Source: Dubosiella newyorkensis (GTDB lineage: Bacteria > Bacillota_I > Bacilli_A > Erysipelotrichales > Erysipelotrichaceae). From it: a stretch of DNA of 16,998 bases. How positions within the stretch are numbered: the stretch's first letter is position 1; every line of letters begins with the position of its first letter. Location: assembly GCF_001945605.1 (NCBI RefSeq), contig NZ_MPKA01000081.1, positions 1 to 16,998 of the forward strand, in the 5' to 3' direction. The position numbers and the translations under genes were made by a program. The notes beneath the pieces are model-generated. The model saw nothing but the letters and a program-made list of their open reading frames with translations, made no database searches and was not told the DNA's origin. This document shows positions 10,601 to 16,789 of the stretch, one piece after another.

Positions 10601-11281
10601 TCAATCGTTTTGTTTACTGAGAACGTCTTTGATATCATCCGAAACGACAGAATCGTAAGAGAACACATTAGTTTCTTCTCTTTTAGTATCATCATTAAAC
10701 GTGAATTCACTTTCGATTTTTGAAATCTTATCTCCATCCGATTCGACTTGAATGAGCACTTCTTTTGGTTTTCCATCATCTTTGATTTCGCCTCGCGAGT
10801 AGGAGATTGTATACGTATCATCTTCCTTCTCCACTTTATACACTGAATTCAACTCCATTTTATGATCTTCATTTTCCTCGAACGCTTCGCCAAAGATTGA
10901 ATAGACAAAAATCGCTTTTTGGTTGGCAGGATCCTCGTTTTTTGAAATTTTGTCGTCTTCAATGACGAAAGATCCATTTTCTTCTATAGCTTCTCCTTGC
11001 AACAAGACACCGTCTTTCAAAATTGACCAACCATAATGTGGTGGTTCTGTTTCATTGAACGTCAACAAAGTGTAGTTTTTTTCTCCCTCTTCCCACGCAT
11101 TGAAATCCGTCCCTTTGGGATTAAGAGCATCCACATTCAAGATTGATTGATCGACGGATGAATCGATAACGCGGATGACTTCTTCTGCTGGATCGACCGA
11201 TTGGGGTTCTGTTCCTGTACTTGTACCACAACCTGACAACACGACTAAACTACCTAGAACACTAATCATTGTTTTTTTCAT
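10601..11281 (-). CDS. lipoprotein of unknown function
   Basis: MKKTMISVLGSLVVLSGCGTS is a signal peptide with an L-S-G-C lipobox. The mature part is acidic and soluble. The start ATG overlaps the ABC transporter stop (ATGA at 11278-11281). Confidence 0.8.
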   Translation of the reverse strand: MKKTMISVLGSLVVLSGCGTSTGTEPQSVDPAEEVIRVIDSSVDQSILNVDALNPKGTDFNAWEEGEKNYTLLTFNETEPPHYGWSILKDGVLLQGEAIEENGSFVIEDDKISKNEDPANQKAIFVYSIFGEAFEENEDHKMELNSVYKVEKEDDTYTISYSRGEIKDDGKPKEVLIQVESDGDKISKIESEFTFNDDTKREETNVFSYDSVVSDDIKDVLSKQND

Positions 11282-12903
11282 AGATTCTCCTTCTCCTCTT
11301 CATGCCTTATAGATATTTCTCCATCTACAAATTCTAATATCGATTCATCGTGGGATACTATAATAATGATTTTATCATGCTTCAAACATTTCAGAACTTC
11401 ATATAGTGCTAATTTGCTATTATTATCCAAATTATTTGTTGGTTCATCTAAAAGTATAATTGGTCTATTTGTATTCAAGTAGCCAAACACAGCAATTTTT
11501 TGTTGCTCTCCTCCTGATACTCCAGAAAAATTAAATTCTTTTCTACTAAGCAATTGTTTTATCTTAAATTTTTCAAAGAGATCTTCCGCATATTCATTTG
11601 CAAAATTTATATTACTGTCATTATTTTTCAATAAATATTTTAAATGTAATTTAGAAACATCTTGAAATAAATAACTTATATAATTTTTTCTATATCTATA
11701 ACAATCCAATTCAGATAATTCATAACAATCCAGTTTTAGTTCCCCTATATACTCTCCACTATTCAATCCTGAAATAATGTCTAAATAGGTAGATTTTCCT
11801 ATTCCATTATCACCTTTAATTAAATACAGATTACCTCTTTTCAATATATTATCTTCATACTTGATTAATTCAGAATCCGGTCTATATTGGAATGATAAAT
11901 TTTCTGTTCTAACTATGGGAGTATTTGTTGATAATTCAAATTTTTGCTTTGGGAATTCTTCTACTTCCAAACTTAACAATTTATCTATTCGCAAATAGCT
12001 AGCTTTTTGCTCCGCATGCGAATTCATAAAACCATAAATCGACTCCACGCTGCTCAAGAACATGTTCAAGTAGGTTATAGATGCTATAAAAAGTCCAATT
12101 GTCAAATTCCCATTGATAACTTTGATTCCTCCAATGATGAACAAGGTAATCTGGGGAATATATTTAGAGAGCATGATTATCTCCATCACTTGAACGGAAA
12201 CTTTTTGTTTTTTAAGCAAATTGTCTAATAGTTGTTCTTTTTTTTCGTTTACCGCATCAACAAGTTCTAAATCATGATGAAATTTCAAGTATTTCCAGTA
12301 ATTTAACCATTCGAATACTGAAGAATAATACTTTGTCTGTGAATTTAGATACGTTTTATTAGCAGCAGCAATTTTATCTTTATTAAGACAAAAATAAGCA
12401 AAATAGAGCAAGCCACTTAGTGTTGAAACAAATAATAAAATTAAATCTATTTTTATAATGATATACCCAAGAAACAATATCTGTATTATGGTTAAAATAA
12501 TTTGAATCACACTTTGATAAACAAAATTAATTAAAGCATTGCTATCATTCGTTATTTGCTGAATGGTTTCAGTTACATTCATTTTTTCCAAATATGATTT
12601 CTTACACATTAAAATGTGATTAATTATAGCTGAGATAAAATCATTAGATGAATTCAATTGTATATATGAACATATTTTCAAATTTATAGAATATAAAATG
12701 ACTGATATAATTTGCAACAAAGTTAATACAATTATAACTCTTACTAAGCTATGAACAGATCTATGTAAAGTTATAAAATCGACTATTTTACCATTTATAT
12801 ATGGAACTAATATAGATATCACCAAAGTGATACATTGGATACAGAAGTATAAAGATAGACTTTTCTTATATTTTTTCAAAAAAGAAAAAATAGTTTTATA
12901 CAT
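11278..12903 (-). CDS. ABC exporter, fused permease/ATPase (half transporter) without a C39 peptidase domain
   Basis: About 300 N-terminal residues hold multiple TM segments. They are followed by Walker A GDNGIGKST, Q-loop YLFQD, signature VSGGEQQK, Walker B ILLDEPTNNLD and H-loop VSHD. The start was set at ATG 12903 (MYKTIFSFLKKYKK; GAAAGG RBS 6 nt upstream). The ORF-track ATG at 12957 has no RBS and lies inside a 15-bp hairpin stem. Confidence 0.85.
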   Translation of the reverse strand: MYKTIFSFLKKYKKSLSLYFCIQCITLVISILVPYINGKIVDFITLHRSVHSLVRVIIVLTLLQIISVILYSINLKICSYIQLNSSNDFISAIINHILMCKKSYLEKMNVTETIQQITNDSNALINFVYQSVIQIILTIIQILFLGYIIIKIDLILLFVSTLSGLLYFAYFCLNKDKIAAANKTYLNSQTKYYSSVFEWLNYWKYLKFHHDLELVDAVNEKKEQLLDNLLKKQKVSVQVMEIIMLSKYIPQITLFIIGGIKVINGNLTIGLFIASITYLNMFLSSVESIYGFMNSHAEQKASYLRIDKLLSLEVEEFPKQKFELSTNTPIVRTENLSFQYRPDSELIKYEDNILKRGNLYLIKGDNGIGKSTYLDIISGLNSGEYIGELKLDCYELSELDCYRYRKNYISYLFQDVSKLHLKYLLKNNDSNINFANEYAEDLFEKFKIKQLLSRKEFNFSGVSGGEQQKIAVFGYLNTNRPIILLDEPTNNLDNNSKLALYEVLKCLKHDKIIIIVSHDESILEFVDGEISIRHEEEKENL

Positions 12904-12924
12904 AATCTGCCTTTCAGTCAAATA

Positions 12925-12960
12925 GTAATGGAAAAGAAGTATATGCTTCTTTTCCATTAC
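12925..12960 (-). terminator. perfect stem-loop between the precursor peptide gene and the ABC gene (candidate attenuator or mRNA-stabilising hairpin)
   Basis: GTAATGGAAAAGAAG-catata-CTTCTTTTCCATTAC has a 15-bp perfect stem and a 6-nt loop. It starts 7 nt after the peptide stop codon and is followed only by a weak U-tract (UAUUUG). Confidence 0.55.
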
Positions 12961-12967
12961 TCTAAAT

Positions 12968-13180
12968 TTAACTAAACAAATCAGAAATATTCATCATACC
13001 CGCTTTTGCTGCACAAGTAGCAGCACAGTTATTTGCGCAATTATAGCAAACTCCTGTGTTGGTATTATTACAGTTTGCATTACACTCAATTGAACATGTT
13101 CCTTTGCAAGCGTTTGCTCCGGTATTACAATTTAATCCACAACTAACATCGCATGTGGGGCAAGCATTTATAGAATTCAT
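12968..13180 (-). CDS. Cys-rich repeat peptide, 70 aa (candidate RiPP precursor)
   Basis: MNSINACPTCDVSCGLNCNTGANACKGTCSIECNANCNNTNTGVCYNCANNCAATCAAKAGMMNISDLFS has 12 Cys and 14 Asn. The ATG at 13180 is preceded by AAGGAGGA with a 4-5 nt spacer. It lies 13 nt downstream of the preceding gene's stop and next to the radical SAM/SPASM gene. Confidence 0.8.
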   Translation of the reverse strand: MNSINACPTCDVSCGLNCNTGANACKGTCSIECNANCNNTNTGVCYNCANNCAATCAAKAGMMNISDLFS

Positions 13181-13193
13181 AAAATCCTCCTTA

Positions 13194-13451
13194 TTAAATA
13201 TTAACAATTCGCTTGTTTTCAAAATCGACTTGTAGCTCATAATTCGAGTTTTCGAGATTTAATTCTTTAATTTTTTTTGACCACCAATTTGTATATTCTG
13301 CATTAATTTGAGAATATGTACTGATTAAATCTTTCATAAGATTCGCAGAAATCCCTTCGCTTTTAATTAAAGCCTCTAAAGCTAGCTTCTTTTCAAATAC
13401 ATTCTTGATAAATTCTAAATCTTCATCAGATAAGGCATATTCAATATTCAT
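13194..13451 (-). CDS. small acidic helical protein, 85 aa; candidate accessory or peptide-binding partner of the maturase
   Basis: MNIEYALSDEDLEFIKNVFEKKLALEALIKSEG...NWWSKKIKELNLENSNYELQVDFENKRIVNI sits between the maturase and the peptide with 20-nt and 13-nt gaps. An AAGGAGA RBS is about 10 nt upstream. It has no Cys and no TM segment. Confidence 0.65.
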   Translation of the reverse strand: MNIEYALSDEDLEFIKNVFEKKLALEALIKSEGISANLMKDLISTYSQINAEYTNWWSKKIKELNLENSNYELQVDFENKRIVNI

Positions 13452-13471: not shown

Positions 13472-15211
13472 TTACTCGTAGTAATATCTGTCTTCAACTG
13501 TTTTATCTAAGATATTTAAAATAGGATCCATTACTGGATTATCACTAATATGGATTGTGTTTGGAAAAACCTCGTTCAATATTCTTGCAGCAACAATTCT
13601 TTCTATGTTTGATTTTTTACATTGAAAAGAGGGAGAAACATTGTACTCACCACAATATCTTCTATTAAGAATCCTACAATTTCTACACTGACTTGCATTA
13701 CAATTTCTACATAACGGATTCTTAGTTTGAAATAACAGAATATTCTTTTCTGGTATTCCATCTTTATAGATTGATCCTATTGGATTTTCACCTTGCGAAT
13801 ATGAATAATGGCACGAGTAAATATTTCCATTTGGAGCTATAGCAATTGATTTATCACCTGGAGAGCAATCATTACTATTTCCATACAATAAATCAGATAA
13901 AACATTAATTTTCTTCTCTCTATTGGTACCTTCATATTGATGTTTAATAAAAATGGCGATTTGTTCAATCTGATCTTTATAAACAGCAAAATCAAATTCA
14001 CTATCAAATCCCAAAATATTTAATTCAATCTCATTACTGTGAAGAAAGATGACCCTGATATATTGGGCTAAATTTGATATTTGATTCTGCGAAATATTCA
14101 GAATAATCTTTTTACAAAATATTTCAGATTCGTTCAAATTTTTGACCTCATCACCCTCCAGAACTATCGAAAACAAATTAAAGGTATCTTTCATAGTAAT
14201 CGCTTTTTTAAAGGGTATAATGTGATGAATTGTATAATTTTCAAAAGACTTATCCAAAAAGACAGTTTCGTCCATTGAGCAATCATGAACAAGAAATATT
14301 TCGCTAAACCGATTTCTTGAATATTCTAAAGCATCGAATAAAGTTTCGTAAGACATCTTTATGTCTTCAGGTACTCTTCTTTTTTCTCCACAATAATCTA
14401 CATATTCGTTACTGAGAAGAATATATGTTTTGTTCTGCTGTTTTGGAATCTCCTCTCTAGCAATACCTTTTTGATTAAACAATCGACTGAAATAATAATC
14501 ATTAGCTCTAACTCTAGCCTTGTGCATATTACAAATATACTTAGCATGCGAAAATATAGTTTTAGAACTTGAATCATCATAATTGAAGCCTTGACAAAAA
14601 TCACATCCACGAGCTGCGGGACAGTTTTTACACTCGTCGTCTAACTGATCATTTTTTGTTGCCACTAAGAAAGGTCGAAGTCTTTCTTTATAAATTCCTT
14701 GTACCATATTCCCAATTCTAATTTCAGGATTTTTATCTAGCGAATAATCTTTGAATCTCATGCATGGATAAGTATATCCATCAGGACCAAAAGCCCTCAT
14801 TTTTCCCGATCCACAACTAGTAACACTCAAATCATCTTCGAGCAAATACCCTCCAATAGAATCCAAAAATAATGTGCAGTAGATTTTATCATAGAAGTTA
14901 TTTTCTATAATATAGTCGGCAAGCATTTTTAACTGTTCCTCAAAAATTAAATCATCACCTTCTTTCCATACATTTTCGAATACTACATTGGCTGATATAT
15001 GAGTAAATCCCAAATCAATTAGATGAACAATGCTTGAATACAGCAAAGGAAGATCGGCTGAAGAAAAAGTAACCTTTGTTCCTGGTACGTGATTTTTCAA
15101 GTATTCGGGAATCCCTTTAATGATCACATCATAAGAACCTGAACCGTCCTCGTACACGCGCATTAAATCATGCTTTTCTTTTGTTCCATCCAATGTAATT
15201 CCCAGAGACAC
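13472..15211 (-). CDS. radical SAM enzyme, C-terminal fragment with two SPASM-like Cys-rich modules
   Basis: It begins with VSLGITLDGTKEKHDLMR, the continuation of the rSAM barrel. The first module is CGSGKMRAFGPDGYTYPC...CKNCPAARGCDFC...C. The second is CSPGDKSIAIAPNGNIYSC...CRNCNASQCRNC...C...C. The GTG start at 15211 has no RBS and is probably not a real initiation site. Confidence 0.8.
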   Translation of the reverse strand: MSLGITLDGTKEKHDLMRVYEDGSGSYDVIIKGIPEYLKNHVPGTKVTFSSADLPLLYSSIVHLIDLGFTHISANVVFENVWKEGDDLIFEEQLKMLADYIIENNFYDKIYCTLFLDSIGGYLLEDDLSVTSCGSGKMRAFGPDGYTYPCMRFKDYSLDKNPEIRIGNMVQGIYKERLRPFLVATKNDQLDDECKNCPAARGCDFCQGFNYDDSSSKTIFSHAKYICNMHKARVRANDYYFSRLFNQKGIAREEIPKQQNKTYILLSNEYVDYCGEKRRVPEDIKMSYETLFDALEYSRNRFSEIFLVHDCSMDETVFLDKSFENYTIHHIIPFKKAITMKDTFNLFSIVLEGDEVKNLNESEIFCKKIILNISQNQISNLAQYIRVIFLHSNEIELNILGFDSEFDFAVYKDQIEQIAIFIKHQYEGTNREKKINVLSDLLYGNSNDCSPGDKSIAIAPNGNIYSCHYSYSQGENPIGSIYKDGIPEKNILLFQTKNPLCRNCNASQCRNCRILNRRYCGEYNVSPSFQCKKSNIERIVAARILNEVFPNTIHISDNPVMDPILNILDKTVEDRYYYE

Positions 15212-15611
15212 CTTCCCCTGGTTTTTTTTTCAAAAATTTTTGAACACGATCAACTAAATACATAGTTCCGTTTGTACCAATGTTAAATCTGTAATTCCAC
15301 CAACAAGGTTTATCCAATTGAAAACTTTTAATTTTAAAGTAATCACAAATCTTATCGATTAAATCTATTTCCAATAACGGTTCTCCACCGATGAAATCTA
15401 CAATAACCATTTCTGGAACGTGATCGTTATTTAAAAACTGATCAATTTGCTTTTTAGCAACATCAAATGTCATTTTCTTGTTGCTGGATTTATTTAAGAT
15501 ATAACAATATTTGCATCTTAAGTTACAATCTTCCGTAACAATAAACGTAATTGTTTTAGCAATCCCTTCCCCCCATGAAGGAACGAATTTCCCAACCAAA
15601 TAGTCACTCAT
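15168..15611 (-). CDS. radical SAM enzyme, N-terminal fragment (AdoMet [4Fe-4S] binding part)
   Basis: ITFIVTEDCNLRCKYCY is the CX3CX2C motif. DFIGGEPLL is the GGE SAM-binding motif and NIGTNGT is also present. A GAGG RBS is 7 nt upstream of ATG 15611. The frame ends 18 codons after the A9 run. Confidence 0.85.
   Translation of the reverse strand: MSDYLVGKFVPSWGEGIAKTITFIVTEDCNLRCKYCYILNKSSNKKMTFDVAKKQIDQFLNNDHVPEMVIVDFIGGEPLLEIDLIDKICDYFKIKSFQLDKPCWWNYRFNIGTNGTMYLVDRVQKFLKKKPGEGVSGNYIGWNKRKA
15222..15230 (-). repeat. A9 homopolymer (T9 on the + strand) at the maturase frameshift site
   Basis: Read directly: g-ttttttttt-c at 15221-15231. This is the only place where the two maturase reading frames can be joined. 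Confidence 0.95.
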
Positions 15612-16402
15612 AATCTAACCTCGCATAATATGAAAACAATCAGAACATGAGACGGAGTTGTGTTTTTGAAGTCTCCAGGCTCTGATTTCCTACCCCCATA
15701 CAGCGATTGGAAATCAAACTTTTTTCTCGGTTCATTCGAATTGCTTTCATTCTCTTTCTTTAGATAATGGTTACGCTTTAAATGAAGTTTTCGTCAATCT
15801 CCTTGCGTTTTCTTTGGAAGTCTTCCTAATTAAGACTTATTCTTCTCATCTCAAGACTATCTCCGAATACTTGAATCTTTCAAAATATAACCATTCAAAT
15901 TTCTGCAAAAGAGTGAAAGAATATTTACCACCATGAAAATAAATCTGGAGAAATTCATCCATTTATCTACATAGCGAAATGTCGATCGACATCTTCCGCA
16001 GTATCCATATAAACTAGGCTGAAATAACAGCCAATCTGTTTTTGAAAAAACCTTCAGAGTTTTGCTTTTGTAAAGTTCTTTTCTATACTCCAATTTTTCT
16101 CGAAGCAAGTGTAAAATCAGCTATTGCCCTAGTACATTGAATTTGCTCATTAAAGATAGCTTTCAACATACTTTTCCTTTCTAACTAAGCCTTTGTTTTC
16201 TGCTTAGGTTTATTCTAGAATCGAAATTGTGAATGTGTATTTGAGTTGTTTTCCTTGTAGCTTTGACTACCTTAGAAAGGATCTTGCCACTTCGGTGTTT
16301 TGAAACTGCTATCAGTTTGATGAGCCTTGAATTCGTATCGCACCAGGATCAGTTCTTCATCGCTTGTGGCTTTGACACATTGTTCACCATTCGAGGTTCA
16401 CT

Positions 16403-16501
16403 ATGATTGCGATCGGTATCGATATCGGCAAATTCAAACACTGCACTGCTGTTTATGACTCTTCCTTTTTACTTATGAACGCTATCATGCCAAAACTCTA
16501 G
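16403..16501 (+). pseudogene. possible N-terminal remnant of an IS110-family transposase
   Basis: ATG at 16403 gives MIAIGIDIGKFKHCTAVYDSSFLLMNAIMPKL*. The first 19 residues resemble the conserved IS110-family start (x-x-GIDI/V-x-K-x-KH-x-x-x-V-x-D). Similarity is lost afterwards and the frame stops after 32 codons. Confidence 0.3.
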
Positions 16502-16645
16502 AAAATGAGAAGTCACACTCTTTTATTTCTTGCCATTTATCAAAAGAATCTCAACTTTACTAAAATAAAACACTTTCTTTCGATATCCATACAAGTCAAC
16601 ATGTTTTCTATTTCCACATCCAGCCTCAAGCTGAGGGCTTATTTT

Positions 16646-16789
16646 TCATTTATGCCCGTCATTCGTCCCAAAAGGATGACTTATTTTCCAGCAATCATCC
16701 ACTTGATGATGTTCGGGACAGTATTGAGGCAGAAGAAGTATACTACCAACAAATACCGCTGTAATTAGCTTTAAAAGTTTCTTTTTCAT
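16646..16789 (-). CDS. hypothetical small secreted peptide, 47 aa
   Basis: MKKKLLKLITAVFVGSILLLPQYCPEHHQVDDCWKISHPFGTNDGHK has a signal-peptide-like N-terminus and 2 Cys. An AAAGGA RBS lies about 9 nt upstream. The longer 104-aa ORF-track version has an implausible AT-rich extension. Support is weak. Confidence 0.3.
   Translation of the reverse strand: MKKKLLKLITAVFVGSILLLPQYCPEHHQVDDCWKISHPFGTNDGHK

Follow-up and report, generated by a model that had tools for sequence, protein, structure and literature searches.

The founding bioinformatic description of the CXXX-repeat system was reportedly that of Haft and Basu in 2011. PMC10114670 cites Haft and Basu 2011. In NCBIfam, TIGR04115 is named “radical SAM peptide maturase, CXXX-repeat target family” and TIGR04119 is named “CXXX repeat peptide maturase.” We searched the literature for CXXX repeat, TIGR041xx, AC3_0185, and Dubosiella together with RiPP (a peptide that is made by ribosomes and then modified post-translationally), and we found no experimental characterization of the CXXX-repeat family. 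Here we analyze a Cys-rich peptide gene in 16,998 nucleotides (nt) of DNA from Dubosiella newyorkensis (contig NZ_MPKA01000081.1 of assembly GCF_001945605.1); “the window” refers to this entire stretch. We propose that this open reading frame (ORF) of 70 amino acids (aa) is an essentially leaderless substrate of a CXXX-repeat radical S-adenosylmethionine (rSAM)/SPASM RiPP operon, with proposed thioether stapling, recognition from the C terminus or through the repeats, and export (probability roughly 0.6). The CXXX-repeat family is already known from database models. What is new here is a conserved, three-block, leaderless precursor that the existing precursor models miss. A sequence-only reading of this DNA had missed both the database-defined system (TIGR04115, TIGR04116, and TIGR04119) and a frameshift in the maturase.

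12968..13180, minus strand: gene for a 70-aa precursor peptide that has three 4-Cys blocks followed by a 14-aa tail at the C terminus (from translation).
13186..13192, minus strand: Shine-Dalgarno (SD) sequence AAGGAGG, 5 nt upstream of the ATG at 13180 (read from the sequence).

The peptide gene translates to MNSINACPTCDVSCGLNCNTGANACKGTCSIECNANCNNTNTGVCYNCANNCAATCAAKAGMMNISDLFS. Its 12 Cys are at residues 7, 10, 14, 18 / 25, 29, 33, 37 / 45, 48, 52, 56, and the gaps between them are, in order, 2,3,3,6,3,3,3,7,2,3,3. The gap is 3 in 7 of the 11 intervals, and the longest unbroken run has 4 Cys. Just 6 residues lie N-terminal of the first Cys, and the 14-residue tail is AAKAGMMNISDLFS. Asn accounts for 14 residues, and 5 residues are charged. 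On retranslation, the Cys positions, the gaps, the Asn and charged counts, the 6-residue N terminus, and the 14-residue tail given in the sequence-only reading were all exact. Given a background Cys content of 1.0% (from seven neighboring proteins), 12 or more Cys would occur in 70 aa with a binomial probability of 6e-12; no second ORF in the window is comparably Cys-rich. The AAGGAGG of the peptide gene comes directly after the stop codon of the upstream gene, which encodes an 85-aa protein and is preceded in turn by the maturase.

15168..15611, minus strand: 5′ part of the maturase, with the rSAM cluster motif CNLRCKYC at residues 29–36 (TIGR04115 positions 1–115; Pfam Radical_SAM and Fer4_12).
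15222..15230, minus strand: homopolymer of nine A (A9) that frameshifts the maturase; intact alleles have eight (A8).
13472..15211, minus strand: 3′ part of the maturase, with the remaining rSAM core, the first SPASM domain, and a C-terminal CXXX_matur domain that contains a second SPASM motif (TIGR04115 positions 119–359; TIGR04119).
13194..13451, minus strand: 85-aa partner, probably a CXXX-repeat modification system protein (TIGR04116-like).

By curated score, the maturase is shown to be a member of the CXXX-repeat rSAM/SPASM system. The two fragments in the window score 150.2 bits (positions 1–115) and 289.9 bits (positions 119–359) against TIGR04115, and L110, an intact allele of 712 aa, reaches 451.7 bits, where the cut-off is 350. 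Similarly, TIGR04119 has a cut-off of 150 and gives 170 bits for the window and 161.4 bits for L110. The next-best family model for the L110 maturase is PapB (NF047865), at 212.1 bits and under its cut-off of 340, followed by ScfB/SCIFF and QhpD. The SCIFF model TIGR03974 gives 148.6 bits (cut-off 425) and aligns only from model position 95, and the sactisynthase models score low (79 bits versus 720 for RumMC). When a model of the maturase was compared to PDB, the top match was CteB (5WHY; E 6e-16, 27% identity across the N-terminal 360 residues) and the second was anSME (E 3e-9); the anaerobic sulfatase maturase profile also matches. The maturase is under purifying selection (omega, the ratio of nonsynonymous to synonymous divergence or dN/dS, is 0.05–0.22), and it has 695 homologues at E ≤1e-10, from gut and rumen Firmicutes and Bacteroidota.

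A single maturase has two complete, invariant 7-Cys SPASM motifs (alignment A1, P0001 residues 220–314 and 536–618), corresponding to two stretches that match TIGR04085. The second motif (C536...C618) is inside the TIGR04119 domain, behind an alpha/beta region, possibly a degenerate rSAM barrel. A sequence search of PDB with the C-terminal half found no relative, and among characterized maturases, we found no counterpart to the second SPASM domain by sequence or by fold. SCIFF/CteB (thermocellin) is similar in that CteB is the best structural match of the maturase and the substrate is Cys-rich, but the Dubosiella maturase has an extra 340-aa C-terminal half with the second SPASM motif, and it has no counterpart to the N-terminal region of the SCIFF maturases.

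To find homologous precursors, we mined the neighborhoods of maturase homologues. Searching for the peptide by shared words had found zero homologues, and phmmer with the peptide against 1.84 billion representatives gave just two weak matches, both to giant Cys-repeat proteins. These negatives are uninformative because these small ORFs are absent from the searched protein collection (the exact 70-, 90-, 66-, and 71-aa sequences are not in it). The closest maturase from outside of Dubosiella (L091/L092, 48% identity) is followed by the peptide MLTVKTGCYTCSNVCGSGCNSTENGCYGLCSVQCSSACSTSNTGQCYNCAYTCAPNCRIKAGMISN. The L091 peptide is 46% identical to the window peptide with no internal alignment gaps, has the identical pattern of Cys gaps, has 7 residues before the first Cys, and has KAGM in its tail. 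The non-Cys residues that are invariant between the two are T9, G15, G27, S30, N41, G43, Y46, N47, A49, A53, K59, G61, and M62. In a sister lineage (L103–L106, “uncultured Dubosiella sp.,” whose DNA is 87.5% identical locally), 15 of the 70 residues differ, and 13 of these 15 substitutions are within blocks 1–2 and the linkers. The N-terminal MNSINA and block 3 show no change, nor does most of the tail. The three lineages (window, sister Dubosiella, and L091/L092) share all 12 Cys and an identical gap pattern. The 70-aa frame and all 12 Cys are also preserved in L090 (a JGI metagenome with DNA that is 99.1% identical to the window), and the AAGGAGG is unchanged in all of the Dubosiella variants that we examined.

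Relative to L103, the peptide has dN of 0.115, dS of 0.36, and omega of 0.32. This dN is the highest in the operon (the other genes have 0.01–0.045). The alignment shows that the non-Cys residues of blocks 1–2 are hypervariable while the three-block Cys pattern, block 3, and the tail are conserved. Judging from these sequences, the three-block design is a conserved architecture of the subfamily. The sequence-only reading had suggested checking in homologues if the number of modules varies and if the tail is the conserved part; the module number is constant within the subfamily, and (as described below) the tail is indeed the part that is conserved across the family. Separately, we considered an antisense ORF (13056..13235) as a gene and rejected it, as it is disrupted in L103 and L090.

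How does this peptide compare to the rest of the CXXX-repeat family (TIGR04115, TIGR04119, TIGR04116)? The maturase belongs by score, the partner appears to be homologous, the gene order is shared (maturase, small protein, Cys-rich peptide or peptides, and ABC transporter, as in L002–L005, L082, L088, L089, L092, and L115), and the Cys spacing in the window peptide is mostly x3. Among 32 other Firmicutes-type precursors, the gap is exactly 3 in 295 of 336 Cys-Cys intervals (88%); gaps of 5 or more occur rarely and never in pairs. In most family members, the Cys-x3 runs continue without interruption for 8–16 Cys, but in the window peptide, the run is split into three 4-Cys blocks by linkers of 6 and 7 residues. 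Because of this interruption, the window peptide is missed by the precursor models TIGR04114, TIGR04117, and TIGR04118 (zero matches at E ≤10), while the precursors of typical relatives match these models weakly to significantly. The window peptide also differs in having 6 residues before the first Cys, versus conserved N-terminal regions of 16–27 residues in most Firmicutes relatives, and in being Asn-rich (16%–20% versus 6%). In Bacteroidota and other Gram-negatives (L013, L015, L019, L022, and L025–L081), the CXXX-repeat proteins are up to about 260 aa with dozens of Cys; they have a twin-arginine-type signal (..SRREFFKKAAKxALPILGA..), and there are often several tandem paralogues. Outside of the family, sactipeptides combine an N-terminal leader with an acceptor half that is free of Cys, whereas Cys run along nearly the whole window peptide. 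C-x3-C sactipeptides such as thuricin CD are alike in having Cys at every fourth residue, as donors for thioethers installed by rSAM/SPASM enzymes (PMC12093266).

Precursors with 1–7 residues before the first Cys and a strong SD adjoin several of the closest maturases (L082, L086, and L091). L082 has three of them (MCLTSC..., MNYYKIC..., and MAYCSYC...), and in L086 the precursor begins MGKC.... At the other end, 19 of 35 Firmicutes-type precursors carry C-x-x-G-x-G after the last Cys, usually with M, W, Y, P, or I next, and the motif C-x-x-(G/K)-x-G-(M/W/Y/P/I) is common to Firmicutes relatives with and without a leader. The window’s CAAKAGMMNISDLFS is in register with CASGAGWSSIDLLDL from L082, and the form in the window’s subfamily is C-x-x-K-x-G-M. 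The conserved tail fits recognition from the C-terminal side, without proving it. The tail cannot be universally required, because the L086 precursor has neither a leader nor a GxG tail; in that case, the Cys repeats themselves may be sufficient.

The classical leader route is disfavored because only 28 residues precede the rSAM CxxxCxxC motif in the maturase, because the alignment to SCIFF begins at position 95, and because a Pfam scan gave no match to PqqD or to a RiPP recognition element (RRE). In CteB, the N-terminal region of SCIFF maturases (before model position 95) is the peptide-binding RRE. Overall, we found neither of the two marks of RRE-guided, leader-dependent RiPPs (a leader and an RRE/PqqD domain). 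We propose instead that recognition would proceed via the C-terminal block and tail (KAGM...), the Cys repeats, or both, and it might be mediated by the 85-aa protein or by the maturase’s extra C-terminal domain.

The 85-aa protein matches TIGR04116 at 28.1 bits (E 1.7e-6, profile positions 6–89 of 90), which is below the cut-off of 50. Its homologues adjoin the maturase in L002, L004–L007, L082, L084, L086, L092, and L115. Against TIGR04116, the positional homologue in L082 scores 69.4 bits and that in L092 scores 49.7 bits, and tblastn connects the 85-aa protein to L004, L002, and L005. An identical protein from Dubosiella newyorkensis is labeled “CXXX repeat modification system protein” by JGI. 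The AlphaFold2 model of the 85-aa protein (pLDDT 90) has a beta-alpha-alpha-beta-beta fold with two long helices. This model had no match in PDB better than E 0.76 and is not RRE-like.

12914..12975, minus strand: strong RNA hairpin that begins at the peptide’s stop codon and precedes the ABC gene (-29.5 kcal/mol, z -7.2).
11278..12900, minus strand: ATP-binding cassette (ABC) exporter, permease plus ATPase, with no peptidase domain (ABC_membrane and ABC_tran).
10601..11281, minus strand: acidic 226-aa lipoprotein with lipobox LSGC, overlapping the end of the ABC gene.

The operon is on one strand, in the order maturase, 85-aa partner, peptide, hairpin, ABC exporter, and lipoprotein. The hairpin is retained in L103 and L090. 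It was not flagged by a terminator scan (its U-tract is too weak), and it is a candidate attenuator or transcript stabilizer. The annotated start of the ABC gene (12957) falls inside the hairpin, so the real start is probably the ATG at 12900; in L108, the called gene has 540 aa. Models for peptidase-containing exporters match the ABC protein only from about profile position 141 on. The lipoprotein had no family match in NCBIfam or Pfam scans, is translationally coupled to the ABC gene, and is retained in the sister lineage (omega 0.21). In other clusters, its slot holds an unrelated 343-aa membrane-anchored acidic protein (L092) or membrane-anchored proteins of ~760 aa (L002/L005). There is no protease gene in the Dubosiella operon, and S8 peptidases are present in the clusters of the relatives L082/L083 and L088 (in L082, the peptidase is a lipoprotein). 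Some loci are rearranged. In L090 (3944..4115), the ABC and lipoprotein genes are missing past the hairpin; in L112/L113, a mutator-family transposase (an insertion sequence, IS) truncates the ABC gene; and in L091 (5990..7630), an IS with a 546-aa transposase lies between the partner gene and the peptide.

As for the modification itself, multiple Cys-derived thioether cross-links seem to be the most likely outcome, with about an even chance of being correct, because the closest characterized relatives (PapB, ScfB/CteB, and QhpD) form thioethers. The two-SPASM maturase would abstract a hydrogen from the peptide and, like CteB, PapB, and QhpD, would form thioethers from Cys thiols, giving several intramolecular cross-links. 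The product would be a compact, multiply stapled peptide, and the peptidase-less ABC transporter would export it, probably without removal of a leader. PapB makes Cys-Asp thioethers; it requires Asp or Glu as the acceptor for Cys, within CX3D/E motifs (PMC9413430). The Dubosiella system resembles the freyrasin/PapB system in that PapB is the next-best match of the maturase and the substrate has repeated short Cys-containing units, and thioether formation from Cys is likely shared. However, the maturase is under the PapB cut-off, and the window peptide lacks an N-terminal leader and the repeated CX3D/E motifs of freyrasin: it has one CX3D (C7–D11) and one CX2E, and the acidic residues are variable (D11 and E32 are S and Q in L091). 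The sequence-only reading had suggested a freyrasin-like acceptor logic based on Cys-x2-(N/T/S/E), and this idea is not supported by the comparison of homologues. The residue before the next Cys varies between the window and L091 (S/V, N/G, T/L, E/Q, N/A, N/T, and T/N), and across the family, small, polar residues occupy this position (S 25%, T 15%, G 14%).

13181..13240, minus strand: in-frame upstream extension MSYKSILKTSELLIFNKEDF, which would give a 90-aa ORF and shares sequence with the 3′ end of the 85-aa gene; as a coding unit, it is not conserved.

We considered several other explanations of the peptide and its locus. The true product could be the 90-aa ORF that starts at 13240, with its 26 N-terminal residues (MSYKSI...) acting as a conventional leader that is homologous to the MSYDSKI... 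of relatives. Some gene callers prefer this form, and M-[SA]-Y-x-S-K-I opens the leaders of L002, L004, L005, L095, and L100. But the extension ends at a stop codon in L090 (MSYKSILKTS*) and at a different stop codon in L103–L106 (MN*KS...), and in both cases the 70-aa ORF and its SD are intact. There is no SD upstream of the ATG at 13240, while the ATG at 13180 has a perfect one; the codons for MSYKS come from reading the conserved ...YELQVDF C terminus of the 85-aa protein in its +1 frame; and in the closest homologue (the L091 peptide), just 7 residues precede the first Cys. Given the stops in two lineages, the SD before 13180 only, and the overlap with a conserved coding sequence in another frame, these alignments show that the conserved unit is the 70-aa frame that starts at 13180. 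The 90-aa ORF is refuted as a conserved unit by the two different stop codons, and we consider a 90-aa product to be very improbable. The sequence-only reading had named this outcome as one that would undo its reverse layout (no leader, and a C-terminal tail instead). With the extension interrupted, near-leaderless relatives in hand, and the tail conserved, that layout is supported as a working hypothesis. Alternatively, the 70-aa peptide could be a true substrate of the maturase and receive another modification, such as anSME-like oxidation of Cys, epimerization, or Cys-Cys or other carbon links. The structural match to anSME and the match to the anaerobic sulfatase maturase model point this way, as do the lack of a conserved acceptor residue between the Cys and the second SPASM domain, for which we found no counterpart in characterized maturases. 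Since the nearest characterized relatives by score (PapB, ScfB/CteB, and QhpD) all make Cys thioethers, we view these other modifications as unlikely. Another idea is that the peptide acts largely unmodified and binds a metal or iron-sulfur cluster at each 4-Cys block, with the rSAM enzyme being accessory or dispensable. Indeed, three separate 4-Cys blocks are conserved, the peptide ORF and all of its Cys persist where the maturase is frameshifted, and the twin-arginine-type signals of the Bacteroidota members are typical of proteins that are exported folded or with a cofactor. This seems quite unlikely, however, given the tight linkage to a maturase that is under purifying selection (including omega of 0.08 past the frameshift in the sister lineage), the dedicated exporter gene after the peptide gene, the RiPP-core-like rapid change of the non-Cys residues, and the unbroken Cys-x3 runs, rather than 4-Cys sites, in most relatives.

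The persistence of the peptide beside a broken maturase also raises the question of whether this locus is functional. The A9 allele is found in the window and in four other public NCBI assemblies (L107, L108, L109, and L111), and the A8 allele is found in L001, L090, L110, L114, and L103–L106. A8 gives an intact maturase of 712–713 aa in L001, L090, L110, and L114, and the L114 allele is present in at least 20 samples. All four sister-lineage loci (L103–L106) have another 1-nt deletion, near window position ~13915, which severs the C-terminal 148 aa of the maturase, and the sequence downstream of that deletion is under strong purifying selection (omega 0.08). The A8/A9 polymorphism, which is seen repeatedly in independent public assemblies and samples, could reflect slipped-strand ON/OFF switching or early decay. 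The system is polymorphic and may be phase-variable or dispensable. The sequence implies that the peptide of this window would stay unmodified unless slippage restores A8. A decaying remnant with no current function in this strain would fit the A9 frameshift in the window and four assemblies, the IS within or close to the locus (L112/L113 and L091), and the absence of the ABC gene from L090. But intact A8 alleles are common, omega is well under 1 for all of the genes, and a single-base change in a homopolymer is reversible, so we consider decay to be improbable. Returning to the modified, leaderless substrate that we favor, some observations do weigh against it. Many relatives have conserved N-terminal leaders of 16–27 aa, the L086 precursor has neither a leader nor the tail, and the 85-aa protein is under the curated cut-off for TIGR04116. 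The maturase frameshifts and the lost or IS-hit ABC gene may indicate that the locus is dispensable or decaying. The chemistry is argued purely by analogy, with no experiment on the family in the literature we found. Finally, no non-Cys position that might be the acceptor is conserved across the family, and anSME-type oxidation of Cys or other chemistry could be at work.

16646..16789, minus strand: secreted-looking ORF of 47 aa that lies upstream of the operon (a called gene in L103–L108).

The 47-aa ORF has a signal-like N terminus (MKKKLLKLITAVFVGSILLLPQYCPEHHQVDDCWKISHPFGTNDGHK) and might tentatively be a signaling pro-peptide. In L103 (1272..2808), it lies between the maturase and a divergent 454-aa regulator with helix-turn-helix (HTH) and tetratricopeptide repeat (TPR) domains. 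This regulator is outside of the window and has zero matches among NCBIfam models. Together, the two look like a quorum-sensing pair that controls the operon. Streptococcal RaS-RiPP operons (PMC9389541) are similar in that a small operon for an rSAM-modified peptide is beside a putative quorum-sensing pair, as in the sister-lineage locus, but the enzyme families are unrelated, and the Dubosiella regulator is not within the window. The ~1 kb between the 47-aa ORF and the maturase (15612..16645) is ORF-poor; the sister lineage lacks this DNA and has only 36 nt between the two genes, and in L090 it is partly replaced. The L082 cluster is flanked by AgrB, histidine kinase, and LytTR genes. The remainder of the window carries housekeeping genes (those of the threonine pathway, Maf, and Lit).

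It is possible, but doubtful, that CXXX-repeat systems form a new RiPP class, defined by a two-SPASM rSAM enzyme (with up to four auxiliary clusters), a non-RRE 85-aa partner, recognition from the C-terminal side or through the repeats, and dense cross-links of an undescribed type. If so, the three-block leaderless peptide would be the most tractable member of that class. The CXXX-repeat family is widespread and has had database models for years, and our literature search found no experimental chemistry for it. The Dubosiella version, with 70 aa and no leader to remove, is a convenient entry to the chemistry of the family and to leader-independent recognition by rSAM enzymes. Natural variants already show which residues are constrained (the Cys and those of block 3 and the tail) and which are variable (those in blocks 1–2), and natural ON (A8) and OFF (A9) alleles of the maturase exist. 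D. newyorkensis is a cultivable commensal of the mouse gut, and the 85-aa partner is indexed in 440 blocks of a public assembly collection; therefore, a secreted product of this operon could matter ecologically.

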